A DNA stretch of 64,000 nt, taken from NCBI GenBank assembly GCA_016235665.1, contig JACRJI010000012.1, forward strand, positions 218,543-282,542. The letters run 5' to 3'. Source of the DNA: a candidate division TA06 bacterium (GTDB lineage Bacteria > Edwardsbacteria > AC1 > EtOH8). How positions within the stretch are numbered: the first letter of the stretch is position 1; each line of letters opens with the position of its first letter. A program made the position numbers and the translations under genes. This document shows positions 10,598 to 48,425 of this stretch, piece after piece. The notes below the pieces were generated by a model. The model saw only the letters and a program-made list of their open reading frames with translations, did not search any database and was not told the DNA's origin.

Positions 10598-10598
10598 G

Positions 10599-10688: not shown

Positions 10689-10689
10689 C

Positions 10690-11142: not shown

Positions 11143-11156
11143 GGTTCTATTTACAG

Positions 11157-11186
11157 TTGACTTACGGGTCATAAATAGGGTATAAT
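11157..11186 (+). promoter_or_regulatory. sigma70 promoter of rpsO
   Basis: TTGACT (11157-11162), 18 bp, TATAAT (11181-11186). Confidence 0.7.
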
Positions 11187-11272
11187 TACAGGTCATTTAA
11201 CCCTGCCCTGCCTGCCCCTCTTCGCAGGTTGCGGCGTATCAAAAACAACCCATTTTAGGAGACGGAAAGACC

Positions 11273-11542
11273 ATGCCTTTGCAAAAGGAAAAGAAGCAGG
11301 AAGTGATCACAGTCCACAAGAAGCACGAGAGCGACACCGGGAGCCCCGAGGTCCAGATCGCCCTGCTGACCGAGCGGATCAACCAGCTGACCGGGCACCT
11401 CAAGGCCAACAAGAAGGATCATGCCTCGCGGCGCGGGCTGCTGATGATGGTGGGCCGCCGGCGGAGACTTTTGGATTATCTTCTCAAACGTCATGCTGCA
11501 CGCTACCGGGCCATCGTGGAAAAATTAGACTTAAGGAAGTAA
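11273..11542 (+). CDS. rpsO: 30S ribosomal protein S15
   Basis: 89 aa; [23 protein letters not shown] motifs. Confidence 0.98.
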
Positions 11543-11603
11543 AATCCGCTTGCGCTTAATGATTGTCTTCTTCAAGCGCCATAGCTTCAGCGGAGGCACT
11601 TTG

Positions 11604-11633
11604 AGGGGCGATTTTACGGTTAAAATCGCCCCT
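11604..11633 (+). other. Perfect 13-bp hairpin in the rpsO-pnp spacer (terminator or RNase III-type processing stem)
   Basis: AGGGGCGATTTTA-CGGT-TAAAATCGCCCCT. Confidence 0.6.
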
Positions 11634-11723
11634 TGTCATTAACCTAACCGGAACAATTCCTCCCGGACAAAAAAGCCGGGAGAAGCCCAGACTCAAGGAG
11701 CCTGGGACAAAAAAGGAGGTTTT

Positions 11724-13802: not shown

Positions 13803-13833
13803 TTTTCAGCCTAATACAAGTTTCAGGCCACGG

Positions 13834-13866
13834 AAAAAGCGCTCCGCATTTAGCGGAGCGCTTTTT
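13834..13866. terminator. Rho-independent terminator after pnp
   Basis: AAAAAGCGCTCCGC-ATTTA-GCGGAGCGCTTTTT. Confidence 0.9.
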
Positions 13867-13947
13867 CTCTTGCTTTTTCAAGCCGTTGGTGATATAAATA
13901 CAGTTTAGTTGGTTGGGGGATTGAACAGATAAAATTTAAGGTGAAAA

Positions 13948-15939: not shown

Positions 15940-15959
15940 TATGGTTTTGAATGGTGAAC

Positions 15960-15991
15960 AAAAAAGCCCCGCTGTAAGCGGGGCTTTTTTT
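15960..15991. terminator. Bidirectional terminator between convergent S8 and Kelch genes
   Basis: AAAAAAGCCCCGC-TGTAA-GCGGGGCTTTTTT. Confidence 0.9.
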
Positions 15992-16009
15992 GCTGTCCCA
16001 AGGTAAATG

Positions 16010-19000
16010 TTATTTGATCAGGTTCATGGTCCGGGATGCCGAGGTTCCATTGACGGTCAACCGGTAGAAGTAAACGCCGGTGGCGGCCTGCCGTCCGGAT
16101 TCATCCCGCCCGTTCCAGGAAACGGTGTAGCGGCCTGCCATCTGGGGACGGTTCACTATTGTCTTCACCAGCTGTCCGGCCACGTTGTATATCGCCAGTT
16201 TCACCGGTCCGTCAGCCGACAGCTGATAGCTGATGGAGGTATTGTCTCTTAGCGGGTTGGGCCTGTTCTGCGCCAGCAAGGTTACGGAAGGTAAAGCGAA
16301 GGAGCTTCCCAGCACGTCCTTGGCATAATCGGTTTGGCCCGCGACGATCTTGAATTCCCTGACCGTTTCACCGGGTTCAGGAGTAAAGCTATAAGTGTTG
16401 TTGTCTTTGATGTTCACCGAAACCTGGCGGCTAAGGTCGGCCAGGTAACACTCCGTTCCGGCCGGGAATTCCACCGGCAGGGTGATGGTCAATTTGGTCT
16501 GGCCGTTGCATTCAACTGCAAAGTCCCAGGTCTGGCCGTCGCCCAGTTCCGGGCGGATATCGGTGCAGAACTGATCTTCTACCAGCCGGAAGTAACCGGA
16601 GGTCCCGGTCAACCCGGAGGGCGGTTCGGGGTAATCGTACTGATCTCGTTGAAGCGAAGCATCGGAGCTGAGCCCAAAGTGATTGTTGTCCGAACCGTTT
16701 CCATTTTCCACAGTCACCAGGGCCTGCCAGCCGTTAGGTTGCTTGTTGACCGGGGCCTTACCTGATTTATTTACTCCGTTGGGATAGATCACCAGATCGG
16801 TTCCAAAGCCATTGTCATTGCGGAAACTAAAGCCCCTGCCGGGTGTAAAATCAAGGTTGTTGGCGAACACCTCCGAAGGATACAGCCACTTGGTCCCGTC
16901 GTAGTAATAAGGCCCTGCCACCATGCCTGGTATCGTCACATTCATCCAGTCGATATTGAACATGAAGGGGCTGCCGATGTCGGCCCAGCCAGGTTCCAGG
17001 ATCAGGCTGCAGGGTTTGGACTGGTTAAAATTGCCGTAACTGCTGTCCGGTCCTTCAAAATTTATATTGGCTGTGCCGCCCAGCCTGTGCCGAAGCCAGT
17101 AAGCCTGTCCCAGCTTGTAGATGTTCCCGCTGCCAAAATTTGTTATTTCGCCGTAGTTTCCGCTACCCCAGATGAACAGGCGCCATTTGGTCTGGTCATA
17201 GTAGCCCAGTTCGTTTTCCAGCTGGCCGTAGATATTGGTCCCCCTGGCGTCGGCGGGGATGGATATCATGTGCCACTGGTCGTTGGGCACGGCTGTGCCG
17301 ATCGGGGTGGTGCCTGTCTGGAAATGGACAGAGTGGATGTAATAGTCACCCATGGCCGGGTAATAGCTGTAATTTCCGGCGGAGTCGCTGGCCACGATCT
17401 GGTACTGCAGGCCGCGGGGGAGTACAGATGTGCCAGGGATGGGACATTCGTAGTTGGCGTTACCGCTATTATAACTCATCACGCTGTTGCCGGTGTAACC
17501 GCTATAGCCTGCCGGGCCCCAGTACAGGGTCACCTGGCCCATTGCGGCGTTGTCGGTGATATTGACGGTGAAAGTGAGTCCCGATCCGGCGTACAGCGCT
17601 CCGTAGTTGGTATTGGGCACTGAGATGCTGGGCGGGGTGGTGTCATCAACCTTGGTGGTAAAATACCAGGGATTGACGTGCCCATTCAGCGCAAAGTTGT
17701 TGCCGGCCAGGTCCTGGGCAGTATTGATGGTTGCGGTTATGGTGCTGTTAGAGGGGAAAGCAGCATGACTAATGATCACCGTGTCACCGCTGGCGCTCCA
17801 GTTGTAAAACCAGCTACCGGGATCAGGGTTGCAGCTAAAGGAGAAAGTGCCGGGGTTAATAGTCTCCGAAAACCCTAGAATGATATCGGCATTGGGGTCT
17901 ATGTCTGTGTTGCCGTTGAAAGGGTAAGTTTGCACCAGTGAAGGCGCGGCCATGTCCAGGGTGAAGCTGGGATAGCTGTGATACCCGGACACGTTGCCGG
18001 CGGAGTCTATGGCCTCGACCCTCCAGAAGAAACGGGCATTGGTATAGCCATAGGCGCTTAGGTCTATAGTTGTGCCAGCTGACGTCAGGGTGGAATCATT
18101 GATTATCAAGTTGCTGAATGAATAGTCGCTGAGGGTGTCTACCTGGAACCGGTACCACTTGGCATCGGTTACGACAGACCATGAGAAATTAACGCTGGGA
18201 TTATTGGTGTGCCAGCCGTCAGATGGGGTGGCCGGGTAGGGGGTGGATGGCGGGGTCAGGTCCAGGGTCAGCCTCCGCACCGGGGACCAGGAGGAGCTAT
18301 CGGGGACTGCCCAGTCATAAGTTTTCACCCGCCAGTAAAAATCGCCTGCCGGAGAAAGAGTGACGCCGCCCAGGGAAGTGTCCGTGCCGGAATAGGATGT
18401 ATAGTCGGCGATATCAATCGTCATAAATGTGGGATCCGAGGAGACCTGAATCCTGTATCCATCGGCGGCGGGCACCTCTCCCCAATAAAAAACGGGACTT
18501 TGATTGTTGATCAGGGCGTTGTTAAGGGGCCTTATCAGCGGCGGAAAGTTGGGGGCCAGAGGATGATACTGCCAAACGCTGTCGCACTGGGCGTTCATGC
18601 CTTTATCGAATCCCCCGAAGAAGTAGATGACATTGTTCACCCCGTAAGCGCCCGCCCGGATGATGCTCAGGGGCAGGGAGTCGCCCGGGGCCCAGGTGTC
18701 AGTCTGGGGATCGTAGATGTCAACCCGGCGGGTGACATTGCCGGACAGGTCGATGGTCCCTCCCATCACGTAGATCTTGTTGTTCAGCACGGCTCCGGTG
18801 GCCATCCAGCGGCCCGGTCCTGGCATGGAGGTCTTACCGCTCCATGATCCGCCGGAAAATGAAGTGTCGTATTGGATCACCGAGTTTAGCAGTGCTCCGC
18901 TGTTGGTCCGGCCGCCTATGACGTAGATGTGGTTTTCGCCGTCCGAGCCCAAAGCCTTGACCACCACCGCCTCGGTGCGGCTCTGGGGCATGGGGGTGGC

Positions 19001-19549
19001 GGCTGAGACCGTGCCGCCGTTCAGGCGGAGAATCTCTACGGTTGAGTCTACCGCACCGCCAAAACGGGTTCCGCCCACCGCGTAAAGATCATGATCTATC
19101 ACCACCAGTCCGTGGTTCATCCGGGGGGTCTGCATCACCAGCCCGGGCACCGGATACCAGCCGGACATCCAGATGGGGTAATAGACGCTGTCGCCGTAAG
19201 CGCTCAGATCCTGAAGATAACCGCCGCAGGGGTATATAGTATCGTTGGTCCCGTTGGAGATGGTCACGGCCGCCAGGCCGTAAACCGGATGCGGATATTG
19301 GGGAATCCCCCAGGCCCCGTCGTGCCAGTTCTGGTTTCCGATCTCATAATAATAAACCCCGTTGATGGCGCTGCCGCCGCTGTTTCCCCCTATCACGGCT
19401 ATCATGGTGCCGCCGGCCAACTGCAGGCCGGTTACCGCCATGTCGTCAATCGGTCCTTGGGGGAGATGACTTTCCATTTGCCAGTATCCGGCCAGGGAGG
19501 TCCCGGCGAACAGGCTGAGCAATGCGATCGTTATAAATATTTTCTTCAT
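16010..19549 (-). CDS. Large secreted protein: Kelch beta-propeller, Ig/FN3-like repeats, Big_5-like domain, C-terminal FlgD-Ig domain
   Basis: Signal peptide; repeated YxxGG...YD...W Kelch motifs; YRIQVS/FYWRV repeats; C-terminal QNRPNP...YNVAGQLV...WNGRD...GVYFYRL. Confidence 0.85.
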   Translation of the reverse strand: MKKIFITIALLSLFAGTSLAGYWQMESHLPQGPIDDMAVTGLQLAGGTMIAVIGGNSGGSAINGVYYYEIGNQNWHDGAWGIPQYPHPVYGLAAVTISNGTNDTIYPCGGYLQDLSAYGDSVYYPIWMSGWYPVPGLVMQTPRMNHGLVVIDHDLYAVGGTRFGGAVDSTVEILRLNGGTVSAATPMPQSRTEAVVVKALGSDGENHIYVIGGRTNSGALLNSVIQYDTSFSGGSWSGKTSMPGPGRWMATGAVLNNKIYVMGGTIDLSGNVTRRVDIYDPQTDTWAPGDSLPLSIIRAGAYGVNNVIYFFGGFDKGMNAQCDSVWQYHPLAPNFPPLIRPLNNALINNQSPVFYWGEVPAADGYRIQVSSDPTFMTIDIADYTSYSGTDTSLGGVTLSPAGDFYWRVKTYDWAVPDSSSWSPVRRLTLDLTPPSTPYPATPSDGWHTNNPSVNFSWSVVTDAKWYRFQVDTLSDYSFSNLIINDSTLTSAGTTIDLSAYGYTNARFFWRVEAIDSAGNVSGYHSYPSFTLDMAAPSLVQTYPFNGNTDIDPNADIILGFSETINPGTFSFSCNPDPGSWFYNWSASGDTVIISHAAFPSNSTITATINTAQDLAGNNFALNGHVNPWYFTTKVDDTTPPSISVPNTNYGALYAGSGLTFTVNITDNAAMGQVTLYWGPAGYSGYTGNSVMSYNSGNANYECPIPGTSVLPRGLQYQIVASDSAGNYSYYPAMGDYYIHSVHFQTGTTPIGTAVPNDQWHMISIPADARGTNIYGQLENELGYYDQTKWRLFIWGSGNYGEITNFGSGNIYKLGQAYWLRHRLGGTANINFEGPDSSYGNFNQSKPCSLILEPGWADIGSPFMFNIDWMNVTIPGMVAGPYYYDGTKWLYPSEVFANNLDFTPGRGFSFRNDNGFGTDLVIYPNGVNKSGKAPVNKQPNGWQALVTVENGNGSDNNHFGLSSDASLQRDQYDYPEPPSGLTGTSGYFRLVEDQFCTDIRPELGDGQTWDFAVECNGQTKLTITLPVEFPAGTECYLADLSRQVSVNIKDNNTYSFTPEPGETVREFKIVAGQTDYAKDVLGSSFALPSVTLLAQNRPNPLRDNTSISYQLSADGPVKLAIYNVAGQLVKTIVNRPQMAGRYTVSWNGRDESGRQAATGVYFYRLTVNGTSASRTMNLIK

Positions 19550-23681: not shown

Positions 23682-24713
23682 ATGCGCGCCCTGGTAAAAA
23701 ACGAGCGGGCACCGGGCCTGACGATGATGGACGTACCCCTGCCGGAGATGGGACCCAACGATGTGCTTATCCGCATTCACAAATCCGCTATTTGCGGCAC
23801 CGACATGCATATCTGGAACTGGGACCCATGGGCCCAGAAGACCATTCCCGTTCCGATGCATGTGGGGCACGAATACGTGGGGGTCATTGAAAAAGTAGGC
23901 AGCGCCGTCACCGGGTACAAGGGGGGCGAGCGGGTGACGGGCGAGGGCCATCTGGTTTGCGGCCATTGCCGCAATTGCCGGGCGGGCAAGCGCCATCTCT
24001 GCCCCAACACCACCGGCGTCGGCGTCAACCGGCCGGGATCGTTCGCTGAATATCTGGCCATCCCGGCGGAGAACGTCTTTCCGGTGCCGGACAGCATCCC
24101 CGACGAGGTGGTCTCGATCTTCGATCCTTACGGCAACGCGGCCCATACCGCGCTCTCCTTCGACATGGTGGGGGAGGACGTGCTGATCACCGGGGCCGGC
24201 CCCATCGGCATCATGGCCGTGGCCATCGCCCGGCATGTGGGGGCCTGCAATGTGGTGATCACAGACGTCAATGATTACCGCCTGGACCTGGCCAAGAAGC
24301 TGGGGGCCACCCGGGCCGTGAATGTGGCCAGGGAAGACCTGAAGACGGTGATGCGCGACCTGGGGATGACCGAGGGATTTGACGTGGGACTGGAGATGTC
24401 GGGCAACGGAGCCGCCTTCCGCAGCATGCTTGATGCCATGCTCAACGGAGGGCGCATAGCGATGCTGGGGATCATGGGCGAGAACGAGGCCATCGACTGG
24501 GGCAAGGTCATATTCAAAGGCCTGTTCCTGAAGGGCATCTACGGCCGGGAGATGTACGAGACCTGGTACAAGATGACCGCTATGATCCGCTCGGGGCTGG
24601 ATATCAGCCCGGTCATCACCCACCGTTTTCCCATAGAGGAGTTCAAATCGGGGTTCGAGGTCATGGGCAGCGGCAGATCAGGCAAGGTTGTTTTGGACTG
24701 GGGGGTGAAATAA
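23682..24713 (+). CDS. tdh: L-threonine 3-dehydrogenase
   Basis: [14 protein letters not shown], structural Zn CxxCxxC...[18 protein letters not shown] motifs. Start at ATG 23682 with GGAGG SD. Confidence 0.96.
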
Positions 24714-24822
24714 GCACCCGCCTGTTAGAGCCAAAGGACTAAGCCAAGGGCTTTGACGCGGACAAGAAGAGGATGAAATCATAACAGCTCTTCTTGATAA
24801 GATAGAAATGGTCGAAGTTGGA

Positions 24823-24860
24823 ACATTCAAACGCCCCGGCTTTCCGGGGCGTTTGAATGT
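24823..24860. terminator. Perfect 17-bp hairpin between tdh and satP
   Basis: ACATTCAAACGCCCCGG-CTTT-CCGGGGCGTTTGAATGT. Confidence 0.7.
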
Positions 24861-24979
24861 CTTATATTATTGCATTAAAGCCGATATTTTGGTATCATTA
24901 AGAATTATATCCTTTCAATTATCCCGGCATTAAAACAAAACAAATATAACCATTAATCTAATCATTCAGGAGACGCTGC

Positions 24980-25567
24980 ATGGACAACGCCACCAGGATC
25001 CAGGACACCACCGCCAATCCCGCCCCCCTCGGACTGATGGGTTTCGGCATGACCACCATATTGCTAAACCTTCACAATGCCGGGTTCTTCGGCCTGGACA
25101 GCGCCATTCTGGCCATGGGCCTGTTCTACGGCGGCATCACCCAGCTGATAGTCGGCATCATGGAATGGAAGAAGGGCAACACTTTCGGCACGGTAGCCTT
25201 CACCTCTTACGGAGCCTTCTGGATCACCCTGGTGGGCCTGATGGTGATGCCCAAGCTGGGCTGGACCGAGGCCCCGTCAGCGGCCTCCATGGCCAGCTAT
25301 CTCTCGGTCTGGGGTTTCTTCTCGTTCCTATTGTTCATCGGCACCCTCAGGCTGAACAAGGCCCTGCAGCTGGTGTTCGGGACCCTGGTGGTCCTGTTCT
25401 TCCTGCTGGCGGCGGGCAAGGCCACCGGGAATGCCGCCATCCTTACCTTTGCCGGGTACGAGGGCATCGTCTGCGGTCTGTTGGCCATGTACGCCGCCGC
25501 CGCCCAGGTCTTCAACGAGATGCACGGGAAAGTGGTGCTGCCGCTGGGCCCTGTCAAGGTTTCCTAA
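24980..25567 (+). CDS. satP: Acetate uptake transporter, SatP/GPR1/FUN34/YaaH family
   Basis: Signature [23 protein letters not shown] and SYGAFW motifs; six hydrophobic segments. Confidence 0.95.
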
Positions 25568-25580
25568 CTGGTTCCTGCCT

Positions 25581-25683
25581 GGCTTCGACTGAACCGGTGG
25601 TTGAGTGCCCCGCCGGGCTTCGATATGGCCTCCAATCACTCAGCCATCGGCGGGGTGTATCGAAACCACCGGTGCTCAGCCAA
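25581..25683. repeat. Nested (three-layer) palindromic element
   Basis: GGCTTCGACTG...GCTCAGCC enclosing ACCGGTGGTT/AACCACCGGT enclosing CCCCGCCG/CGGCGGGG. Confidence 0.7.
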
Positions 25684-25709
25684 CGGCAGGAAGTATCTAG
25701 TGACATCAG

Positions 25710-25738
25710 TTGACTTTGAAATTCACAGATGCTATAAT
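25710..25738 (+). promoter_or_regulatory. sigma70 promoter of acpS (and probably acs-carrier-kbl)
   Basis: TTGACT (25710-25715), 17 bp, TG-extended TATAAT (25733-25738). Confidence 0.8.
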
Positions 25739-25756
25739 TTTTTACTGGTAACCAAG

Positions 25757-26125
25757 ATGGTGATCGGCATCGGGGCAGATATCGTGGCGGTGGACCGGTT
25801 CAGAACGCTTAAGGACAAGGAGGAATTCCTGGCCCAGGTCTTTTTGCCCGAGGAACTGTCCCGCGCACCCAAGGCAAACCGGGACCGGTTCTACGCCTCG
25901 CTGTTCGCCGTCAAGGAGTCGGTCTTAAAGGCCCTGGGATGCGGCCTGAGCCGGGGGTCTTTCTGGCACGATATACGGATCTCCAAGGACATGCGGGCAG
26001 TCATCACCGGACCCCTGATGAGGTTTGTACCGGATGGTTCAAACCCGGACATCATGGTCAGCCATTCCAGCACCCGGGAATACGCCACGGCCTATGTAAT
26101 AATTGAAACTAAAACCAATAAATGA
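25757..26125 (+). CDS. acpS: Holo-[acyl-carrier-protein] synthase (4'-phosphopantetheinyl transferase)
   Basis: IGIGADIV, FAVKESVLKALG and VSHSS..YATAYV motifs. Start at ATG 25757 because the track's upstream start runs through the promoter. Confidence 0.9.
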   Translation: MVIGIGADIVAVDRFRTLKDKEEFLAQVFLPEELSRAPKANRDRFYASLFAVKESVLKALGCGLSRGSFWHDIRISKDMRAVITGPLMRFVPDGSNPDIMVSHSSTREYATAYVIIETKTNK

Positions 26126-26129
26126 CTCT

Positions 26130-26226
26130 TACCACGGAAACACTGAATTTACGGAATAATTATGCAGGTGCATTTTAATGTATTGCATTTTTCCGGTTTT
26201 TCTTTTCTTTCCGTGGTTCTGTGGTA
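26130..26226. repeat. CCAC(A/G)GA-type inverted-repeat element
   Basis: TACCACGGAAACACTGAA versus the reverse complement of TTCCGTGGTTCTGTGGTA (15/18 match). Confidence 0.65.
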
Positions 26227-26277
26227 GGTTTCCTAAATAATCCAAAGGAATAAAAATATTAACTTGGGAGAAACGGC

Positions 26278-27978
26278 ATGAGCAACATCGGTTCCTACGA
26301 GGATCGTTACAAGAGCTTCGACTGGAAACTTTCGGAACAGGAGCTGGAGTACGGAAAGAACGGGCAGTACAACATAGGTTATTACTGCAGCGACCGGATC
26401 TGCGAAAAGGGTTTTGGCTCAAAGCTGGCCCTGATCTGGGAGGGGTTCACCGGCGAGATCAAGAAATACACCTACGACGACATCCGGGCTTACAGCAACA
26501 CCACCGCCAAATTCCTGCAGGACCAGGGGGTCAAGCCGGGCGACCGGGTCTGCCTGTTCATGGACAAGATCCCCGAGCTCTACATCTGCTTCCTGGGCAT
26601 CTTAAAGATGGGGGCCATAGCCCAGCCGCTGTTCTCGGCCTTCGGCGAAGAGTCCCTGATCACCAGGCTGGACGACGCCAAGACCAAGGCGGTGCTGACC
26701 ACTCGTAAACACGTGGGCAAGGTCCGCCGGATCCGCAAGGACCTGCCGGAGCTGGCCACCATCATCATCGTGGACGCCGACGACAAGCCGCTGAACGCCG
26801 GGGAGGCCGCCTTTGCCATGGAAAAACTTCCCCGGGTGGAAAAGTTCGACATCGTAAAAGTTGAGCCCGAGACCCCCTCGGTGCTGCACTACACCTCGGG
26901 CACCACCGGAAAGCCCAAGGGGGCCCAGCACGTCCACAATTCTTTGGTGGCCCAGTACATCACCGCCAAGTGGGTGCTGGATCTGAAACCGGAGGACATC
27001 TACTGGTGCACCGCCGATCCCGGCTGGGTCACCGGCACCTCCTACGGCATCATCGGGCCCTGGGCCAACGGGGTCACCCAGGTGGTGCTGGACGCCGGTT
27101 TCAGCGCCCAGAACTGGTACACCTTCATCGAGAAGATGAAGGTCACCATGTGGTACTCGGCCCCCACCGCCATCCGGATGCTGATGAAGGAGGGGGTGGA
27201 GGCGGTCAAGAAGCACAACCTCTCCACTCTCCGCCACCTGTGCAGCGTGGGCGAGCCGCTGAACGCCGAGGCCGTGATCTGGTCGGAGAAGGCCTTCGGC
27301 CAGCCGTTCTACGACACCTTCTGGCAGACCGAGACCGGGGCCATGATGATCTGCAACTATCCCGGGATGAAGGTCAAGCCCGGCTCCATGGGCAAGCCCT
27401 TCCCCGGCATCACCGCCACCGTGGTCAACCCCAAGACCTTCGAGCCGGTGAACCATCCCGGCACCGTGGGGCTGATAGCCTTCAAGCCCGGCTGGCCCTC
27501 CATGATGCGGGCCTACTGGAACAACAAGGAGACCTACGACGGCAAGTTCAAGAACGGCTGGTACCTTTCGGGCGACCGCTCCAGCATCGACGCCGACGGC
27601 TACTACTGGTTCGTGGGACGGGATGACGATGTCATCAACACCGCCGGCCACCTGGTGGGGCCGTTCGAGATCGAGTCCGCATTGCTGGAACACCCGGCGG
27701 TGGCCGAGTCGGCCGCGGTGGGCAAGCCAGACCCCCTGAACATGGAGGTGGTCAAGGCCTTCATCGCCCTCAAGCCGGGCTTCAAGGCCGACAGCGACCT
27801 GGAGATGGACATCATGAACTTCATCCGCAAGAAGCTGTCGCCTTTAGCCATGCCCCAGGAGATAGAGTTCATGGCCTCGATGCCCAAGACCCGGAGCGGA
27901 AAGATTATGCGCCGGATGCTGCGGGCCAAGGAGTGGGGCGAGGAGATCGGAGACATAAGCACCCTGGAAAACGACTAG
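26278..27978 (+). CDS. acsA: AMP-forming acetate ligase (short AcsA-type acetate--CoA ligase; possibly acetate--carrier-protein ligase)
   Basis: YTSGTTGKPKG P-loop, DPGWVTG, SVGEPLN, DTFWQTETG, GRDDD and KTRSGKIMRR motifs. Confidence 0.9.
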   Translation: MSNIGSYEDRYKSFDWKLSEQELEYGKNGQYNIGYYCSDRICEKGFGSKLALIWEGFTGEIKKYTYDDIRAYSNTTAKFLQDQGVKPGDRVCLFMDKIPELYICFLGILKMGAIAQPLFSAFGEESLITRLDDAKTKAVLTTRKHVGKVRRIRKDLPELATIIIVDADDKPLNAGEAAFAMEKLPRVEKFDIVKVEPETPSVLHYTSGTTGKPKGAQHVHNSLVAQYITAKWVLDLKPEDIYWCTADPGWVTGTSYGIIGPWANGVTQVVLDAGFSAQNWYTFIEKMKVTMWYSAPTAIRMLMKEGVEAVKKHNLSTLRHLCSVGEPLNAEAVIWSEKAFGQPFYDTFWQTETGAMMICNYPGMKVKPGSMGKPFPGITATVVNPKTFEPVNHPGTVGLIAFKPGWPSMMRAYWNNKETYDGKFKNGWYLSGDRSSIDADGYYWFVGRDDDVINTAGHLVGPFEIESALLEHPAVAESAAVGKPDPLNMEVVKAFIALKPGFKADSDLEMDIMNFIRKKLSPLAMPQEIEFMASMPKTRSGKIMRRMLRAKEWGEEIGDISTLEND

Positions 27979-27989
27979 GAACGTGAACC

Positions 27990-28167
27990 ATCCGCAGATT
28001 ACGCAGATTGCCGCAGATAACTCTTATTTAAAAGCGGATGTATCTGTGAAGCTGGGATAGGCCGGAAAACATCGCTAAATAAAACGATCCACGGATTATG
28101 GCAGTGAGTCACGGATGGCAGTTAAATTTGAAAAATAAATCTGTGTTAATCTGTAAAATCTGCGGAT
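27990..28167. repeat. CAGATT decamer-periodic inverted-repeat element
   Basis: ATCCGCAGATTACGCAGATTGCCGCAGAT ... AATCTGTGTTAATCTGTAAAATCTGCGGAT. Confidence 0.8.
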
Positions 28168-28202
28168 AAAGATAACAATCGCCCAAAACTAAGGAGACTA
28201 CA

Positions 28203-28460
28203 ATGTCAGACGAAATCAAGAAAATGATCATCGAATACGTCAAAAAAGAGTACCTGGACGAGGATTCAGACACGGAGATCAAGGAAGACACCAAGTTGAT
28301 CTCCAGCGGCATCGTGGACTCGTTCTCCATGGTCTCTTTGAAGACCTACCTGGAAAAGAAGTTCCAGATCAAGCTGCCGGACGAGGACGCCACCCCCGAG
28401 GCCTTCGACTCGGTCAACAACATCATCGAGCTGATCAGGAAATTCGGAGCCAAGGTCTAA
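28203..28460 (+). CDS. Stand-alone acyl/aminoacyl carrier protein (DltC-like, not FAS AcpP-like)
   Basis: 85 aa, acidic; GIVDSFSM phosphopantetheine site; F.SV..I C-terminal motif; SD AAGGAG. Confidence 0.9.
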   Translation: MSDEIKKMIIEYVKKEYLDEDSDTEIKEDTKLISSGIVDSFSMVSLKTYLEKKFQIKLPDEDATPEAFDSVNNIIELIRKFGAKV

Positions 28461-28471
28461 ACTTAATTACT

Positions 28472-28506
28472 AATTCAAAATTCTGAATTCGAAATTCAGT
28501 ATTCAG
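28472..28506. repeat. Heptamer tandem repeat
   Basis: AATTCAA AATTCTG AATTCGA AATTCAG TATTCAG. Confidence 0.7.
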
Positions 28507-28523
28507 ATTATAAGGGAGGTAAG

Positions 28524-29771
28524 ATGGCCTACAGTTCCAAAGCCAGGGATTTCTATTCCGGAGAACTCCAGGGGATGAAGGACAAGGGGATCTTCAAGGA
28601 AGAACGATACATCCAGTCGCCCCAAGCCGCCAGTATCAAGGTGGAATACCCCAAGGGGGCCGAGCCCAAGCAGGTGCTGAACTTCTGCGCCAACAACTAC
28701 CTGGGGCTTTCCAGCCACCCCGACGTGGTCAAGGCGGCCCACGAGGCCCTGGATTCCCGGGGCTACGGGCTGTCCTCGGTCCGCTTCATCTGCGGCACCC
28801 AGGACATCCACAACGAGCTGGAGATCAAGATGAGCGAGTTCCTGGGCATGGAGGGCACCTGCCTGTTCCCCTCCTGCATGGAAGCCAACGCCGGGCTGTT
28901 CGACGTGGTGCTCTCGCCCGAGGACGCCATGATCTCGGACCGGCTGGTCCACGCCTCCATCGTCGACGGGCTGAAGCTGTGCAAGGCCCAGATGTTCAAC
29001 TACAAGCACAACAGCATGTCCCACCTGGAGGAGAAACTGCAGGAGGCCCAGAGCTGCCGCCTGCGGATGATCATCACCGACGGGGTGTTCTCCATGGACG
29101 GCGACATCGCGCCCCTGGATAAGATCTGCGACCTGGCCGACAAGTATGATGCCATGGTGATGGTGGACGACTCCCACGCCACCGGATTCATCGGCAAGAC
29201 CGGCCGGGGCACCCACGAGTACCACAATGTGATGAAGCGGGTGGACATCATCACCACCACCTTCGGCAAGGGTTTGGGCGGCGCCACCGGCGGCTCGGTC
29301 AGCGGACCGAAGGAGATCGCCGAGATGTGCCGGCAGCGGGCCCGTCCCTACCTGTTCTCCAACACCATGCCCCCGGCGGTGGTGGCCGGATCGCTGAAGG
29401 TGCTGGAGATCCTCTCCAAATCCACCGACCGCAGGGACAAGCTGGAGAAGAACACCGCCTACTGGAGGGCAGGCCTGACCAAGGCCGGTTTCGACCTGAA
29501 GCAGGGCGACACCCCCATCGTCCCGGTGATGCTGTACAACGCCAAGCTGGCCCAGGACATCGCCCGCGACCTGTACCACGAGGGGATCTACGTGACGGGC
29601 TTCTTCTTCCCGGTGGTGGCCCAGGGCCAGGCCCGGATAAGGACCCAGATCTCGGCCGGACATGAGATGGAGCATTTGGACAAGGCCCTGGCGGCCTTTA
29701 CCAAGATCGGCCAGAAGTACGGGATCCTGGGGCTGAAGAAGGACGAGATCATAGCCAAGTACGGGCTGTAG
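28524..29771 (+). CDS. kbl: Glycine C-acetyltransferase (2-amino-3-ketobutyrate ligase) paralog 1, divergent
   Basis: NFCANNYLGLS, SVRFICGTQ, TDGVFSMDG, DDSHA, TFGKGLGG (PLP Lys) and ARIRTQIS motifs. Confidence 0.9.
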   Translation: MAYSSKARDFYSGELQGMKDKGIFKEERYIQSPQAASIKVEYPKGAEPKQVLNFCANNYLGLSSHPDVVKAAHEALDSRGYGLSSVRFICGTQDIHNELEIKMSEFLGMEGTCLFPSCMEANAGLFDVVLSPEDAMISDRLVHASIVDGLKLCKAQMFNYKHNSMSHLEEKLQEAQSCRLRMIITDGVFSMDGDIAPLDKICDLADKYDAMVMVDDSHATGFIGKTGRGTHEYHNVMKRVDIITTTFGKGLGGATGGSVSGPKEIAEMCRQRARPYLFSNTMPPAVVAGSLKVLEILSKSTDRRDKLEKNTAYWRAGLTKAGFDLKQGDTPIVPVMLYNAKLAQDIARDLYHEGIYVTGFFFPVVAQGQARIRTQISAGHEMEHLDKALAAFTKIGQKYGILGLKKDEIIAKYGL

Positions 29772-29779
29772 GATTCCCC

Positions 29780-30003
29780 ATCCGCAGATGACGCAGATCA
29801 TCGCAGATTATACAATTATATTGGCTTACGTGTCATTGCGAGAAGGCCCAGTAGTTGACGAGTGAAGCAATCTAGACTATAATACAAGCCGTAATTTAGA
29901 GAGTTAATCCGCCGAAGCTGCCTAGGCCTATGCGTAGGAGGATAACAATGCGGCGGGAAGGGATTTAACTCCCGTCCCGCCGTTTGTGCTTACTTATGTT
30001 GGC
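29780..30003. repeat. Stack of four different palindromic/repeat motifs
   Basis: CCGCAGAT triplet (29780-29810); GTCATTGCGAG...GAAGCAATCT (29832-29873); ATCCGCCGAAGC...GCGTAGGAGGAT (29907-29943); GGCGGGA/TCCCGCC hairpin ending in GTTGGC (29952-30003). Confidence 0.7.
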
Positions 30004-30098
30004 AATCTTTAGTATTAATGGTTACTATCCTATGATGAGCTTAAACAATAATGTTGTTAATATTACATTTACAACAGATATTGAGGTTAGGAGACAGT

Positions 30099-30770
30099 AT
30101 GAGTCTTAAAAATATTATTCCGAAAAATGTTGTTCCGAACGTTTGGGATAAAACATTAGTTATTGCTAATATTGTTCTTGTTGTTGTCACCGCTGCTTAT
30201 ATGCTGTTGACCGGTTGCATGGTTGATGAAATGAAAAGGCAGAATACAATGCAACGTCAAGCGTATTTAACATCGTTGTGTCCGTATCTGTTTTATGATG
30301 CGGATTCCATTAATGTTACTAAAACAAAGATAGAAGGCAAAGAGATTATAACGTTTTTTAGTGCGTGCCATCTTAATAATGAGGGCAACACACCGGCCGA
30401 GATTGTTTTAAAATCAGAAAGTTTATATAAGTACGGTATGGATAGCCTCAATTTAAGAGATACAATACTAATAAATTTTTCAAAAATTGAGGAAGCGAAA
30501 GAGTCTTTTTTCCCCAACTATATAGCACCACATAAATCTTTTCATTATTATATTCAGAAAAAAATTAACAATAACGATTACAGCATAGATAAAAATGGAA
30601 TAACATTTTTGCACATTCTAATTATTTACCGTGATAATTTCAATTCCTATCATGATATATATTTCATATCAAAAATATCGTTAACCAATAAGGTACAATA
30701 TATGCCAACTACTGATTTGCATGATTACACAGAAAGTGAAATAAAGTATATATTGAAACGCTTGCATTAA
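30099..30770 (+). CDS. AT-rich hypothetical membrane-anchored protein, probably horizontally acquired
   Basis: N-terminal TM then a beta-rich domain; composition is visibly far more AT-rich than the flanks; SD AGGAG before ATG 30099. Confidence 0.7.
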   Translation: MSLKNIIPKNVVPNVWDKTLVIANIVLVVVTAAYMLLTGCMVDEMKRQNTMQRQAYLTSLCPYLFYDADSINVTKTKIEGKEIITFFSACHLNNEGNTPAEIVLKSESLYKYGMDSLNLRDTILINFSKIEEAKESFFPNYIAPHKSFHYYIQKKINNNDYSIDKNGITFLHILIIYRDNFNSYHDIYFISKISLTNKVQYMPTTDLHDYTESEIKYILKRLH

Positions 30771-30890
30771 AATTGATAAAATAATGTAAACGCATATCTT
30801 TATATTTTACAAAATCAATAGGCAGAACCGATTCCATTTGTTTAACTTTTTTCTTTCACATATAACACAAGGGGTAATCACCGACTCATC

Positions 30891-32108
30891 ATGGCACTTC
30901 ACATCAAGGTAAAGGAATTTTACCGCAAGGAACTGGTGGAGCTGCAGGACGCCGATCTCTTCAAGGAGGAGCGCTATATCCACACGCCGCAGGCGGCCAG
31001 CATCAAGGTAGAGTACCCGCCCAACTCGCCCCATAAGGAGGTCATCAATTTCTGCGCCAACAACTATCTGGGCCTCTCCAGCCACCCGGCCATCGTGGCC
31101 GCGGCCAAGCAAGGCCTGGAGGAACGGGGCTTCGGGCTGTCCTCGGTCAGGTTCATCTGCGGCACCCAGGACAAGCACAAGGAACTGGAACGGAAGATCT
31201 CCAAATTTTTGGGCATGGAGGACGCCATCCTGTATTCCTCCTGCTTTGACGCCAACCTGGGCGTGTTCGAGGCTCTTTTAGGCGAGGAGGACGCCCTGAT
31301 CTCGGACGAGCTGAACCACGCCTCCATCATCGACGGCATCCGGCTGTGCAAGGCCGAGCGGCGCCGCTTCAAGCACATGGACATGCACGACCTGGAAAAC
31401 CATTTAAAGCAGACCATGAACAAGCGCTTCCGGATGATCGTCACCGACGGGGTCTTTTCCATGGACGGCGACCTGGCACCTTTAGAACAGATCTGCAACC
31501 TGGCCGAGGAGTACGAGGCCATGGTGCTGGTGGACGAGAGCCATGCCAGTGGGTTCGTGGGTCCCACCGGCCGCGGCACCCACGAGCATTTCGACGTGAT
31601 GGGCCGGGTGGACATCATCACCACTACCTTCGGCAAGGCTTTGGGCGGGGCCTCGGGCGGCTGCGTCAGCTCCAGCAAGGAGATCATCGATCTTTTAAGA
31701 CAGCGCTCCCGGCCCTACCTGTTCTCCAACACCATCAGCCCCTCAGTAGTGGCCGCCACCATCAAGGCTATTGAGATGATGCAGGGCTCCACCGCCCTGC
31801 GCGATAAGGTGATGGAGAACGCCAAATACTTCCGGCAGAAGATGGCGGAGGCCGGCTTTGCAATCCGGGAGGGGATTCACCCCATAGTGCCCATCATTTT
31901 GCACGAGGCGGAGATCGTCCAGCAGATGTCCCGGATGCTATACGACGAGGGCATCTACGTGATAGGGTTCTTCTACCCGGTGGTGCCGCGGGGCCGGGCC
32001 AGGATCCGGGTGCAGATCTCGGCGGCGCACGAGCGGGAGCATTTAGACAAGGCCATCGCGGCTTTTACCAAGGTGGGGAAGAAACTGGGGGTACTGAAAC
32101 CTAATTAA
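30891..32108 (+). CDS. kbl: Glycine C-acetyltransferase paralog 2, canonical motifs
   Basis: NFCANNYLGLS, SVRFICGTQ, YSSCFDAN, LNHASIIDG, TFGKALGGA and ARIRVQIS motifs. Confidence 0.93.
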   Translation: MALHIKVKEFYRKELVELQDADLFKEERYIHTPQAASIKVEYPPNSPHKEVINFCANNYLGLSSHPAIVAAAKQGLEERGFGLSSVRFICGTQDKHKELERKISKFLGMEDAILYSSCFDANLGVFEALLGEEDALISDELNHASIIDGIRLCKAERRRFKHMDMHDLENHLKQTMNKRFRMIVTDGVFSMDGDLAPLEQICNLAEEYEAMVLVDESHASGFVGPTGRGTHEHFDVMGRVDIITTTFGKALGGASGGCVSSSKEIIDLLRQRSRPYLFSNTISPSVVAATIKAIEMMQGSTALRDKVMENAKYFRQKMAEAGFAIREGIHPIVPIILHEAEIVQQMSRMLYDEGIYVIGFFYPVVPRGRARIRVQISAAHEREHLDKAIAAFTKVGKKLGVLKPN

Positions 32109-33457: not shown

Positions 33458-33534
33458 GGGCGATTAGCTCAGTTGGTTAGAGCGTCTGCTTTACACGCAG
33501 AAGGCCGGGGGTTCGAGCCCCTCATTGCCCACCA
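33458..33534 (+). tRNA. tRNA-Val (anticodon TAC), CCA encoded
   Basis: Cloverleaf with acceptor GGGCGAT/ATTGCCC, D-arm GCTC/GAGC, anticodon stem TCTGC/GCAGA around loop TTTACAC, T-loop TTCGAGC and 3' ACCA. Confidence 0.97.
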
Positions 33535-34781: not shown

Positions 34782-37706
34782 ATGATGATCGTTCGGTTAT
34801 ACATAATGCTGATGCTGTCGGCTGGCATTTTAGCTCCGCTGACAGGCTGGGCTGTTCCCTTAACCGGCCAGTGGTCCGCCGGCATGTCCGGCAGAAAGGG
34901 CAGCGGGGGCCCCGACGCCTACGGCTACAGCTACATCGACAATAATCCGGTGCAGGCCGGCAGCCCCGCCTATGCTTGGATCGACACCACCGGGGCGGGC
35001 TGGACCACGGTTACCGGTCTGGGCGACGACAATTTTTCGGGGCCGTTCAGCATAGGCTTCACTTCTCCATTCCCATATTACTGGAATAACGCCACTCAGT
35101 TTTGGGTGCATGCCAACGGCGGCATCTCCCTGTCCCAGCCGTTAAGGGGCTGGACGCCTTACGTAACCGGAGAGAACGGCTTTCCCAACCTGGCCAAGCC
35201 CCAGGACCTGGTGGGCGGGTTGGGCATTGATCTTGATTTTACCAACGCCGGAAAATGCAAATACCGCTCCCGCAACGATTCACTGGTGGTAAGCTGGAAC
35301 GGGGTGCGGGGCTGGAACACCACGGCCTGGTACAATTTCCAGATACTGCTGACCAGGGCCGACAGCTCCATCAAACTGCAATACAACCGCATCGACCCGG
35401 CCTTTCCCTCGGCCAATGCCAGCATCGGCATAGAAAACAACAACGGCACGGTGGGGCTAAGTTACTATGACAATGGCGCTCCGGCTGACAATCTTCCGGC
35501 GGCGGGGCGGGCGGTCAGAATCTATCCGCCGGCCAGTTCTTCATACACTTCCATCGATGCCGGCGTGGCCTGGGCGCTTAATTCTCAAAGCGGGGCGGTG
35601 GTGGTGCATACGCTGGATATGTTCCAGCCCCAGGCGTCAGTGGCAAATTTCGGGACCGGACCGGCGGTCATTCCCAGAACCATCTGCCGGATAAGGAACG
35701 CGGCCGGAACGGTGGTCTACGCCGATACCATCCTGAACATAGCTTTGGCAAAGGGCCAGCAACAAGACACGGCCTTCGTCAAAATCTTCAACCCCACAAC
35801 GGCTGGAACCTATACCCTGGTGGTGCGGACCGAAGGCCTGGCCGAAAGCCCGGCCAACCCGGCCAACGATTCTGTCACCGTGGAACTGCCGGTGGTGGCT
35901 TACCAGTCGTGGCTGCGCTACGACGACAACACTGCCGAAACTTTTTGGGCCTGGAGCGGAGCCAGCGCCACCGCCCTCAAGGGCTTCGCCAACTATTTCG
36001 AGCTGAGCCGCTATCCGGTGATGCTGGACAGCGCCCAGGTCTACATCAATTACCGCAACAAGGACAACCTCTACATCCAGATCTACGATGCCACCGGACC
36101 CGGGGGAAGCCCTGGGGCCCTGCTGGCCACCGACACCTTGAAGCTCTCCGGCAATAACCAGTACCGGTGGATGTCGGTTTCCTACACCACCCGCAACGTG
36201 ACAGTGCCCACCGGGAAATTTTTCGTCTGCGCCAGGACTCCAAACCCCACAGTGCGCTTCGGTATGGATCAGGCCGCACCCGTTTCCCGCCGGAGCTGGG
36301 AGTTCACCGGCAGTTGGACGCCCTACCGGGGGCTGGAGGGCCAGGAAGTGATGATCCGGGCCAATGTTCACAAACCAAACAACTCAGCAATCTACGTTGA
36401 CGCAGCTTTCGGCAGTGATCTTAACCCCGGCACCAGCGCATTGCCATTGAAGACCATGACCCACGCAGTGGAGGTGATCAGCAGCACCGATACCTGCTAT
36501 GCCCGCAGCGGCAGTTACACCGGACGGCTGACATTCACCCCGCGGCATTCCGGCACCGCCGCCAACCGGACTGTGATCACCGCCCAAGCCGGGCATACTC
36601 CCCTGCTTTACGCCGGCGGGGCGGACGGCTCCGTCATCGACAGCGCAGCTTCCTACATTACCTTCAGCGGATTCACGGTTTATCCCGGCAGCGTGGTCTC
36701 GGCCTATTTTCAGGATGCCAATAACGTGCTTTTCACGAAAAACCGGGTTTACGTTCCCACCATGGGCTACGGCCTTTTGGCGGTGGGCTTGACCGCATCT
36801 CAGATCAAGGGCAACACCGTGGGGCCCTCCGCCGACAACATCAATCCAGCCGAAGGAGTCTATCTATGGGGAACGGACCAGGTCAGGATCGACAGCAACC
36901 GTATCTCGGGGATGATCGATGCCGGCATAGTGTTGGACTCGGACACCCGCACCACGGTCAGCCGCAACCTTTCTGATCACTGCTTTTTTGGGATAGACCT
37001 GTGGGGCAGCAGCGGCGACTCGCTCTACAACAACACCTTTGACGGCAACCTTAATTCCGGCATCCATGTTCAGGGCATCAGCGGGACGTTGGTCATCCGC
37101 AATACCAACAGTACCAACAATATTTATGGCATCTGCTGGGACAGCTCCGGGTCGGTTTCCAGCGACTACAATAATATCTGGAACAACACCTACAACTACA
37201 AAAACCCGCAAGCTCCGGGAGACACCAACGTTGTCCCGGCCGGCGTTCACGACATCTCGGCCGACCCCCAGTATACTGCCGCTTATCACCTGCTGTCCGC
37301 CAGCCCCTGCCGCAACGCCGGGATCCCGGTGGGCCTGCCCTACCTGGGAACCGCTCCCGACATTGGCGCCTACGAGGACTGGGCCAAACTCATGGACGCT
37401 GACGGAGCATACCCCGGAGGCTTGAGCCCGCAATTCGGCTTAAAGCAGAACCGGCCCAATCCGTTCGTCCGGGCCACCACCATCACCTATCAACTGCCGG
37501 CCGCGGGGGCGGTGAGCCTCAGGGTCTACAACATCACCGGACAGCTGGTGAGGAGCCTGGTAAGTGAAGTTCAGAATCCCGGGGAGCACAGCGTAAACTG
37601 GGACGGGAGGGACGCCGGCGGACGGACGGTAAGCGCGGGCGTCTACCATTACCGGCTGGTAAGCGGCGGCCAGACGCAGACGCGGTCGCTGCTGTACATC
37701 AAGTGA
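34782..37706 (+). CDS. Large secreted adhesin-like protein: beta-sandwich domains, right-handed beta-helix, C-terminal FlgD-Ig domain
   Basis: Signal peptide; GGPDAYGYSYID; YVDAAFGSDLNPG...PLKTM beta-helix cap with Asn-rich coils; QNRPNPF...GQLVRSL...WDGRD...GVYHYRL. Confidence 0.75.
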   Translation: MMIVRLYIMLMLSAGILAPLTGWAVPLTGQWSAGMSGRKGSGGPDAYGYSYIDNNPVQAGSPAYAWIDTTGAGWTTVTGLGDDNFSGPFSIGFTSPFPYYWNNATQFWVHANGGISLSQPLRGWTPYVTGENGFPNLAKPQDLVGGLGIDLDFTNAGKCKYRSRNDSLVVSWNGVRGWNTTAWYNFQILLTRADSSIKLQYNRIDPAFPSANASIGIENNNGTVGLSYYDNGAPADNLPAAGRAVRIYPPASSSYTSIDAGVAWALNSQSGAVVVHTLDMFQPQASVANFGTGPAVIPRTICRIRNAAGTVVYADTILNIALAKGQQQDTAFVKIFNPTTAGTYTLVVRTEGLAESPANPANDSVTVELPVVAYQSWLRYDDNTAETFWAWSGASATALKGFANYFELSRYPVMLDSAQVYINYRNKDNLYIQIYDATGPGGSPGALLATDTLKLSGNNQYRWMSVSYTTRNVTVPTGKFFVCARTPNPTVRFGMDQAAPVSRRSWEFTGSWTPYRGLEGQEVMIRANVHKPNNSAIYVDAAFGSDLNPGTSALPLKTMTHAVEVISSTDTCYARSGSYTGRLTFTPRHSGTAANRTVITAQAGHTPLLYAGGADGSVIDSAASYITFSGFTVYPGSVVSAYFQDANNVLFTKNRVYVPTMGYGLLAVGLTASQIKGNTVGPSADNINPAEGVYLWGTDQVRIDSNRISGMIDAGIVLDSDTRTTVSRNLSDHCFFGIDLWGSSGDSLYNNTFDGNLNSGIHVQGISGTLVIRNTNSTNNIYGICWDSSGSVSSDYNNIWNNTYNYKNPQAPGDTNVVPAGVHDISADPQYTAAYHLLSASPCRNAGIPVGLPYLGTAPDIGAYEDWAKLMDADGAYPGGLSPQFGLKQNRPNPFVRATTITYQLPAAGAVSLRVYNITGQLVRSLVSEVQNPGEHSVNWDGRDAGGRTVSAGVYHYRLVSGGQTQTRSLLYIK

Positions 37707-45796: not shown

Positions 45797-45834
45797 TTTT
45801 CTAATGGTAAAATTAAAGGGAATCATTGGAAACC

Positions 45835-48353: not shown

Positions 48354-48425
48354 ATTCCCCCCGGTTAAAATTGTTTTTTGAAAACCGCTATATGATAATG
48401 ATAATAAAAAACAGGGCCATTGTAA

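Follow-up and report, generated by a model that had tools for sequence, protein, structure and literature searches.

The closest described counterpart of the locus reported here is found in Caulobacter, where the synthetase AasR acylates the carrier protein AcpR, not CoA, and the alpha-oxoamine synthase (AOS) SPT prefers acyl-AcpR (PMC9386255). The canonical threonine pathway, formed by threonine 3-dehydrogenase (Tdh) and glycine C-acetyltransferase (Kbl) as in the E. coli tdh-kbl operon, works instead with free CoA and needs no carrier protein, phosphopantetheinyl transferase (PPTase) or ligase. In a 64,000-nucleotide stretch from a candidate division TA06 bacterium (contig JACRJI010000012.1, positions 218,543 to 282,542; hereafter the window), seven genes on the + strand between positions 23682 and 32108 encode Tdh, a SatP-type acetate channel, an AcpS-type PPTase, an AMP-forming acetate ligase, a stand-alone carrier protein (CP) and two Kbl paralogs, Kbl1 and Kbl2. 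An earlier note on this DNA had placed the genes at these coordinates and likened them to the Caulobacter system of Spt, acyl carrier protein (ACP) and acyl-ACP synthetase. Curated NCBIfam and Pfam models back the gene identities, and the likeness is apt.

We consider it probable that the ligase, CP and Kbl1 work together by way of a short-chain acyl group held on the carrier as a thioester (acyl-S-CP), a view that draws on their sequences and gene order. Granted such a shared core, we lean slightly towards the condensing direction over the catabolic one. The complete proposal, a carrier-protein-dependent Tdh/Kbl pathway with the condensing direction included, is the one we favour, although we put it forward tentatively and at somewhat less than an even chance. 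In this scheme AcpS would make holo-CP from the 85-aa CP, and the ligase would adenylate acetate and load it as acetyl on CP, whose phosphopantetheine thiol would replace CoA as acceptor or be preferred to it. Kbl1 would then interconvert acetyl-S-CP and glycine with 2-amino-3-ketobutyrate, which the Tdh-family dehydrogenase would connect with L-threonine. The net reaction would be acetate + ATP + glycine + NAD(P)H -> threonine + AMP + PPi. By holding a private CP pool nearly fully acetylated, the ATP-driven ligase could drive the unfavourable, non-decarboxylative condensation by Kbl, and the carrier would therefore have a purpose. The private acetyl carrier that the earlier note had placed between an Acs-like ligase and a Kbl-like enzyme thus finds strong though indirect support in the gene order, the upstream AcpS gene, the acetate pocket of the ligase and the separate clade of Kbl1. 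The seven genes are as follows.

23682-24713, + strand: tdh, canonical Zn-dependent L-threonine 3-dehydrogenase, 343 aa from the ATG at 23682 (the open reading frame (ORF) starts at a TTG at 23667)
24980-25567, + strand: satP, AceTr-family acetate/succinate channel
25757-26125, + strand: acpS, AcpS-type 4'-phosphopantetheinyl transferase, 122 aa
26278-27978, + strand: ligase, AcsA-like AMP-forming acetate ligase, 566 aa, proposed to be an acetate:carrier-protein ligase
28203-28460, + strand: CP, stand-alone acidic carrier protein, 85 aa
28524-29771, + strand: kbl1, carrier-associated glycine C-acetyltransferase paralog, 415 aa
30891-32108, + strand: kbl2, canonical glycine C-acetyltransferase, 405 aa

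Conserved gene order and protein features

One genome per species was scanned for CP, which yielded at least 579 CP-encoding stretches. The locus counts given here use the best 80 of these; gene order was read by tblastn with the window proteins and AcpS was found by hidden Markov model (HMM), and the denominators are the loci with enough flank. The nearest CP homologues belong to metagenome-assembled genomes (MAGs) of Candidatus Edwardsbacteria. The 80 loci span more than 12 phyla, and their hosts include Ignavibacteria (among them a MAG assigned to Ignavibacterium album), Bacteroidota, WOR-3, Zixibacteria, Fermentibacteria, Calditrichota, KSB1, Fibrobacterota, Eisenbacteria, Krumholzibacteria, Aminicenantes and other Acidobacteriota, Polyangia, Planctomycetota, Chrysiogenota, Riflebacteria and Coatesbacteria.

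In 71 of 72 loci Kbl1 is found downstream of CP, at a distance of at most 700 bp. The ligase is found upstream of CP within 4 kb in 69/73 loci and is directly adjacent in 61 of these 73, while AcpS stands directly 5' of the ligase in 47/71. Because the order ligase-CP-Kbl1 recurs in about 70 of 80 species-level genomes of many phyla, the arrangement is far beyond chance. The flanking genes are wholly different between lineages and the cassette order is unchanged; in compact genomes, such as that of locus L004, the cassette genes abut or overlap. As a negative control, ligases of the sister clade (44-52% identity) were inspected, and neither CP nor Kbl turned up in the loci, not even in an HMM search with a threshold of E<=10. 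From the linkage counts, the varied flanks and this carrier-less control, the conserved unit is AcpS-ligase-CP-Kbl1. Identity across phyla is 63-98% for the ligase, about 73% for Kbl1 and 60-99% for CP.

The remaining genes are accessories, some of them common and others occasional. A Tdh-family gene lies upstream of the cassette in 22/65 loci, a second, canonical Kbl follows Kbl1 on its 3' side in 23/59 (39%), and SatP is present in 3/80, with further cases in L002 and L117. The synteny that the proposal of the earlier note would require therefore holds across phyla for ligase-CP-Kbl1, mostly with AcpS, but not for Tdh, Kbl2 or SatP, and its treatment of the seven genes as one set gives way to the smaller unit; the seven-gene layout of the window is the version of its own lineage. 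Loci lacking Tdh showed no other conserved partner gene, their neighbours being unrelated housekeeping genes, and no fusion of CP to the ligase or Kbl1 was found in the loci, where long ORFs in high-GC sequence proved to be frame overlaps. In L046, L073 and L082 (Aminicenantes/Chrysiogenota) some 2-3 kb of other sequence lies between the ligase and CP, with CP and Kbl1 still adjacent. No ligase was found in the 8-kb upstream flank of L070, L079 and L084.

The ligase of the window scores 779 bits against NF003313 (short-form acetate--CoA ligase; cut-off 729), profile scores being given throughout as bits of the window proteins against NCBIfam or Pfam cut-offs. Among solved structures, a 572-aa acetyl-CoA synthetase (PDB 9g79) matches it best. 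It carries the motifs GWVTG, SVGEP and DTFWQTETG, as had been noted, and has GHLVG where the Acs of E. coli and Salmonella has GHRLG. The acetate pocket (E. coli V310, T311, V386 and W414) and the catalytic Lys609 are invariant in 52/52 cassette ligases, as are the hinge Asp and G524. With the pocket so conserved, acetate, or propionate at the most, is the acyl substrate to be expected.

Residues R191, R526 and R584 of Acs matter for CoA binding and the thioester step (PMC10455477). R526 is replaced by Leu in all 52 cassette ligases, and the position of R191, where the alignment is less certain, is occupied by G, P, S or A. Of the three arginines of a CoA-type Acs, R191 and R526 are thus absent and R584 is present. 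A further 15 residues never vary within the cassette clade and are seldom found elsewhere, and several of them adjoin CoA-contact positions (E. coli 160, 180, 580, 581 and 592). The loss of R191 and R526, together with these clade-specific residues, is consistent with a new thiol partner. The exchange of HR for HL, to which the earlier note had drawn attention, is real and invariant in the cassette but is not diagnostic, as the carrier-less sister clade has Leu too. We therefore rejected the change of R526 to Leu as a signature of carrier loading: GHL occurs in 17 of 74 short relatives (1.8 billion representatives searched). The NF003313 equivalog itself spans enzymes that differ at R526, a residue reported to be important for the CoA step.

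CP is an acidic protein (pI 4.6) that is recognized by PF00550 (PP-binding) with 24.2 bits against a cut-off of 20.8. It falls under every NCBIfam carrier cut-off, the best of these models being the OlsHI ACP (57 against 130); this is no more than a distant, sub-threshold resemblance. The family is large, with more than 5000 homologues after clustering at 90%. The GIVDSFSM motif, which had also been noted, occupies residues 36-43, and within it VDSFS is invariant in 16/16 diverse CP sequences, which share 46 invariant columns. Ser40 in this motif is the presumed phosphopantetheine site. The AF2 model of CP (pLDDT 83) displays a helical-bundle carrier fold, and its top Foldseek matches are PigG and PltL (TM-scores of 0.8-0.85), the CcbZ carrier, the carrier of the Bradyrhizobium glycine:carrier ligase, and DltC. 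As modeled, the fold is closest to that of stand-alone carriers loaded by separate adenylating enzymes.

AcpS scores 52.7 bits on PF01648 (ACPS; cut-off 25) and 58.5 on TIGR00556 (cut-off 45.35), and just misses TIGR00516 (58.3 against 59.8). It presumably turns apo-CP into holo-CP. An AcpS-DltC complex is found among the fold matches of CP, which provides a precedent for an AcpS-type enzyme that modifies such a carrier. No second PPTase was found in the 64-kb window. As a sign of a dedicated PPTase, the linkage of AcpS to the ligase is suggestive only.

Both Kbl paralogs pass TIGR01822 (cut-off 493), Kbl1 with 593 bits and Kbl2 with 627. On SPT models Kbl1 reaches only 236-327 bits against cut-offs of 500-670, and it is well under the BioF cut-offs. 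The closest solved structures to both proteins are Kbl enzymes, and 51 Kbl1 and 20 Kbl2-type sequences carry without exception N50, H136, S185, D210, H213, T241, K244 and R368 (E. coli Kbl numbering). Kbl2 is canonical, with the YSSCF motif and no C-terminal extension, as in E. coli Kbl. In Kbl1 the motif is replaced by FPSCM, accompanied by L264C and S268A, and the protein ends in a clade-specific, lysine-rich basic tail of 12 residues (ILGkKKdEIIakYG). Mean identity within Kbl1 across phyla is 73%, versus 57% to Kbl2 and E. coli Kbl, and Kbl1 formed its own cluster in 100/100 resamplings (UPGMA). An FPSCM motif and a lysine-rich tail beside an acidic CP are, like the ligase residues, consistent with a new thiol partner.

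The Tdh of the window scores 585 bits on NF003808 (cut-off 380) and 512 on TIGR00692 (cut-off 458), and possesses the catalytic zinc ligands C38, H63 and E64, the structural Cys4 site and the NAD-specifying Asp. SatP likewise is a clear member of its family (NF038013, 267 bits against 50; PF01184, Gpr1_Fun34_YaaH, 138.6 against 25). Wherever a dehydrogenase is linked to the cassette it belongs to the Tdh family, in one of at least four subfamilies.

Subfamily 1: canonical Tdh, as in the window
Subfamily 2: 345-aa WOR-3 type, which passes the Tdh cut-off (473 against 458)
Subfamily 3: 368-375 aa, 372 bits, without the structural-zinc cysteines and the acidic NAD-specifying residue
Subfamily 4: 408 aa, 290 bits, with an N-terminal insertion

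Subfamilies 3 and 4 are under the Tdh equivalog cut-off, and the catalytic zinc ligands are kept in all four. That Tdh relatives of several kinds have been recruited time and again connects the module with the couple of threonine and 2-amino-3-ketobutyrate. The two divergent Tdh-like subfamilies occur in loci L002 (4950-6062), L009, L039, L055 and L057; and L010-L013, L016-L018, L023, L024, L030, L032 and L001. Cofactor preference was tried as a clue to direction and rejected as inconsistent, the specifying position of the Tdh-like proteins being D, E or G.

Direction of flux and competing explanations

Two further points were counted for the condensing direction. To our knowledge, the characterized systems of ligase, carrier and AOS all load and condense. 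In addition, the position of satP beside the ligase parallels the acetate-uptake operon acs-yjcH-actP of E. coli.

Other observations weigh against the proposal, some against its direction and some against the carrier as acceptor. As far as we know, Tdh and Kbl are catabolic in every organism in which they have been characterized. Where Kbl1 and Kbl2 stand in tandem, as they do in 39% of loci, opposite directions of the two enzymes would create a futile cycle. Seven WOR-3 loci (L026, L028, L029, L031, L034 at 9657-10787, L035 and L036) encode, directly 3' of Kbl1, a 376-aa FAD-dependent oxidoreductase of the SoxB/ThiO type; this enzyme could be a partner that oxidizes glycine or aminoacetone, and it agrees with glycine as the product. 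A riboswitch or other leader responsive to threonine or glycine was sought in the window and 17 cassette loci, with no Rfam match at the gathering threshold. On the side of the acceptor, the cassette ligases keep R584 and F163 of the CoA site, and P0122-type ligases (loci L089-L103, L106 and L116) possess Leu526 and reach 889 bits on NF003313 in loci that have no CP or Kbl. Because Leu526 is present in such carrier-less relatives and R584 is retained, the cassette ligase may still use CoA. Moreover, acetyl-CP as intermediate, the acceptor used by the ligase, CP as the thiol partner favoured by Kbl1 and the direction of flux are all points that we infer from sequence.

The alternative that survives best is a catabolic energy module, which we regard as possible but doubtful. 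It would use the same enzymes and the same acetyl-S-CP to turn threonine into glycine, acetate and ATP. Tdh would oxidize threonine, Kbl1 with holo-CP would cleave 2-amino-3-ketobutyrate to glycine and acetyl-CP, and the ligase would run in reverse, from acetyl-CP, AMP and PPi to acetate, ATP and holo-CP, with the acetate leaving through SatP if present. Several of the points above speak for it directly, namely the catabolic role of Tdh and Kbl elsewhere, the tandem of Kbl1 and Kbl2, which suggests a shared direction, and the glycine-oxidase-like FAD enzyme of WOR-3. The hosts also look like anaerobic heterotrophs, with an aldehyde:ferredoxin oxidoreductase in the window and relatives from sediment metagenomes and metatranscriptomes, and the strong conservation of ligase, Kbl1 and CP fits heavily used core enzymes. 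The Acs of Syntrophus aciditrophicus reportedly forms ATP from acetyl-CoA, AMP and PPi. However, no other system is known to us in which ATP is made from the thioester of a carrier protein, and the ligase-carrier pairs known to us all run in the loading direction. Nor does the carrier bring an obvious gain over CoA in such a module, which would moreover have a linked Tdh in only roughly every third locus and SatP in fewer than 5%.

We think it distinctly unlikely that the cassette consists of an ordinary CoA-dependent Acs and Kbl, with CP as a structural or regulatory subunit or as the servant of an unrelated reaction. Both enzymes score above the NCBIfam equivalog cut-offs for CoA activities, and the retained R584 and F163, as well as Leu526 in relatives that have no carrier, fit this explanation. 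Structures of Nfs1/ISD11 and complex I, in which ACP is a non-substrate subunit, are also among the fold matches of CP. It offers no account, however, of why some 70 of 80 species have CP placed between ligase and Kbl1 and AcpS upstream, or of why a separate Kbl1 clade exists beside the canonical Kbl2. In the closest characterized architecture, that of AasR-AcpR-SPT, the carrier is a substrate.

An amino-ketone product appears improbable to the same degree. Here acetyl- or propionyl-CP and glycine would give 2-amino-3-ketobutyrate and, by decarboxylation, aminoacetone, which could become 1-amino-2-propanol, pyrazine- or pyrazinone-type signals or another metabolite. Such a fate would suit the two thirds of loci that have no linked Tdh. 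Aminoacetone-derived signals such as DPO involve Tdh chemistry and adenylate-forming enzymes (PMC12930378), and AOS enzymes that use ACP-bound short acyl groups occur in natural-product pathways, as predicted for SxtA. On the other hand, every linked dehydrogenase is of the Tdh family, conservation across phyla is far above what is usual for secondary metabolism, no recurrent tailoring, export or receptor genes were found nearby, and Kbl1 retains the residues of a non-decarboxylating Kbl.

Least likely by far, and largely refuted by sequence, is a long-chain pathway of the sphingolipid or sulfonolipid type with a true ACS-ACP-SPT orthologue. The three-gene architecture is the same and some loci adjoin envelope genes (in L001, for instance, those for a lipid A acyltransferase and a glycosyltransferase), but the acetate pocket is closed by W414 and its partners in 52/52 ligases, Kbl1 has 327 bits on the best SPT model (cut-off 640) yet 593 on Kbl, and the flanking genes are not conserved.

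Transcription and surroundings of the locus

Four further features lie within or between the genes of the locus.

24823-24860, + strand: terminator-like hairpin, a 17-bp G+C-rich stem followed by a T-rich tail, from a consensus scan only
25710-25738, 5' of acpS: promoter-like site from a sigma-70 scan, which has limited value for this lineage
27979-28202, + strand: spacer of 224 nt between ligase and CP, with CCGCAGAT-type inverted repeats
30051-30770, + strand: ORF between kbl1 and kbl2, 239 aa, low GC, no family match

In the window genome the seven genes probably form more than one transcription unit, given the hairpin after tdh and the promoter-like site before acpS. The hairpin suggests that tdh is transcribed apart from satP and from the block of acpS, ligase, CP and kbl1. 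A ribosome-binding site is present upstream of each of satP, the ligase gene, CP and kbl1. Metatranscriptome contigs from sediments and ice cover tdh, satP, the ligase and kbl1 at 90-95% identity; relatives of these genes are expressed, although the depth of the contigs is no quantitative measure and unrelated contigs are drawn in by conserved motifs.

The spacer between the ligase and CP folds as a long hairpin (RNA fold z-score of -3.6), in which CCGCAGAT and ATCTGCGG are inverted repeats. The window holds 12 copies of the octamer of these repeats, where 2.75 would be expected; some of the copies are intergenic, and beyond this spacer the octamer is found at 29782, 60288/60373, 2961 and 8699/8970. 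The repeat may be a REP- or MITE-like palindromic element. As the gap between ligase and CP is below 100 nt in most other genomes, the 224 nt of the window are probably an inserted palindromic element that is no part of the mechanism.

The ORF at 30051-30770 is an eighth gene on the same strand, absent from the list of the earlier note, and it separates kbl1 from kbl2. It had no family match among the models searched and no metatranscriptome coverage. Where the window has this 239-aa ORF as the cargo between its kbl genes, the near-identical genome of L006 has 4.5 kb (9640-14200) with four further ORFs, which by their sequence, read with no family scan, are ATPase-like, a methyltransferase, GNAT and HepT/DUF86-like. 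In Ignavibacteria, by comparison, the two genes lie about 75 bp apart (L007, 9590-11620). The kbl1-kbl2 spacer looks like an insertion hot spot with variable cargo.

The wider context of the window consists of housekeeping or environmental genes. The aldehyde:ferredoxin oxidoreductase at 8396-10597 is an anaerobe marker. Several large secreted proteins are encoded (13948-19549, 34782-37706 and 43733-45826), three of them with FlgD-Ig-type C-terminal domains, and a phosphate cluster at 45907-60268 comprises a sensor histidine kinase, porin O/P, ABC-type permeases and PHO4. One tRNA is present (33458-33531). SecDF lies upstream on the - strand, as it does in the relative L002.

Significance and comparison with known systems

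The individual parts of the cassette are known families (Tdh, AceTr, AcpS, short Acs, PP-binding carrier and Kbl). The earlier note knew of no described pathway with this gene set, and literature searches bear it out: searches on Tdh/Kbl with ACP, on acetyl-ACP, on AOS with acyl-ACP synthetase and on Ignavibacterium found no account of the cassette. In public databases its proteins are annotated as 'glycine C-acetyltransferase', 'acetate--CoA ligase', 'acyl carrier protein' or 'hypothetical'. Taken together, the cassette suggests that C2 units pass between acetate, glycine and threonine on a private protein and not on coenzyme A. As a class it would therefore be a carrier-dependent AOS system, unusual both in acting on C2 units of central metabolism and in how widespread it is.

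If acetyl-S-CP is indeed the intermediate, the CoA-dependent Tdh/Kbl pathway of the textbooks has a widespread, overlooked carrier-dependent form, and thousands of entries named 'acetate--CoA ligase', 'glycine C-acetyltransferase' and 'acyl carrier protein' stand for different reactions. Reconstructions of acetate, glycine and threonine flux would then need revision for abundant uncultured sediment lineages, among them Edwardsbacteria, Ignavibacteria, WOR-3, Zixibacteria, Aminicenantes/Acidobacteriota, Calditrichota and Fibrobacterota. The principle of a private acyl carrier that feeds an AOS would reach from lipid and natural-product synthesis into central C2 metabolism, and the cassette would provide a test case for the reasons why a thioester pool is kept apart from CoA in cells. 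Biocatalytic C-C bond formation could also profit from the enzymes it would supply, an acetate:carrier ligase and a Kbl that depends on a carrier. Should the catabolic, ATP-yielding alternative hold, substrate-level phosphorylation from a protein-bound thioester would be categorically new.

Among known systems, citrate lyase offers a chemical parallel. Its ligase CitC places acetate, at the expense of ATP, on the thiol of a dedicated carrier, CitD, as we propose for the cassette. However, CitC belongs to an unrelated ligase family, the prosthetic group of CitD is unrelated as well, and the acetyl group of citrate lyase serves as a primer for catalysis, whereas that of the cassette would be a consumed substrate.

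The enzymes of the cassette have closer relatives in CoA-dependent metabolism. Short-form Acs (NF003313/PRK04319; PDB 9g79) is about 47-55% identical to the cassette ligase over its full length and has in common with it the acetate pocket, the ATP motifs and the catalytic, acetylatable Lys in PKTRSGKIMRR. The cassette ligase differs in its Leu at R526, Ala or Gly at S523, the lack of Arg at 191 and its 15 clade-specific residues. With respect to the canonical Tdh-Kbl system (Kbl structures 1FC4 and 3TQX), the window encodes a typical Tdh and a typical Kbl2. Kbl1 shares about 55% identity with E. coli Kbl, the catalytic residues included, but it is set apart as a separate clade by FPSCM in place of YSSCF and by the 12-residue basic tail.

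An AOS that condenses a C2 or C3 acyl group borne on ACP with an amino acid has likewise been predicted in the ACP-AONS didomain of SxtA, from saxitoxin synthesis (PMC2679770). There, a GNAT domain is predicted to load the ACP from acetyl-CoA, the amino acid is arginine, and the reaction is decarboxylating and takes place in a multidomain enzyme of secondary metabolism (PMC2679770).

The architecture itself is best matched by AasR-AcpR-SPT of Rhodobacteria (Caulobacter CC_1165/CC_1163/CC_1162; PMC9386255), in which the genes for an ANL-family ligase, a specialized stand-alone carrier and an AOS also lie together. That system belongs to lipid synthesis in Proteobacteria and joins long-chain fatty acids to serine, with decarboxylation, to give 3-oxo-sphinganine. 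In contrast, the cassette has a ligase with an acetate pocket, an AOS of the Kbl type, which uses glycine without decarboxylation, a CP under all NCBIfam carrier cut-offs, and linked genes for AcpS and a Tdh-family enzyme; its hosts are members of the FCB group, Acidobacteriota and other phyla. By analogy, the cassette is best read as a short-chain analogue of AasR-AcpR-SPT that its substrate-defining features place outside that family.

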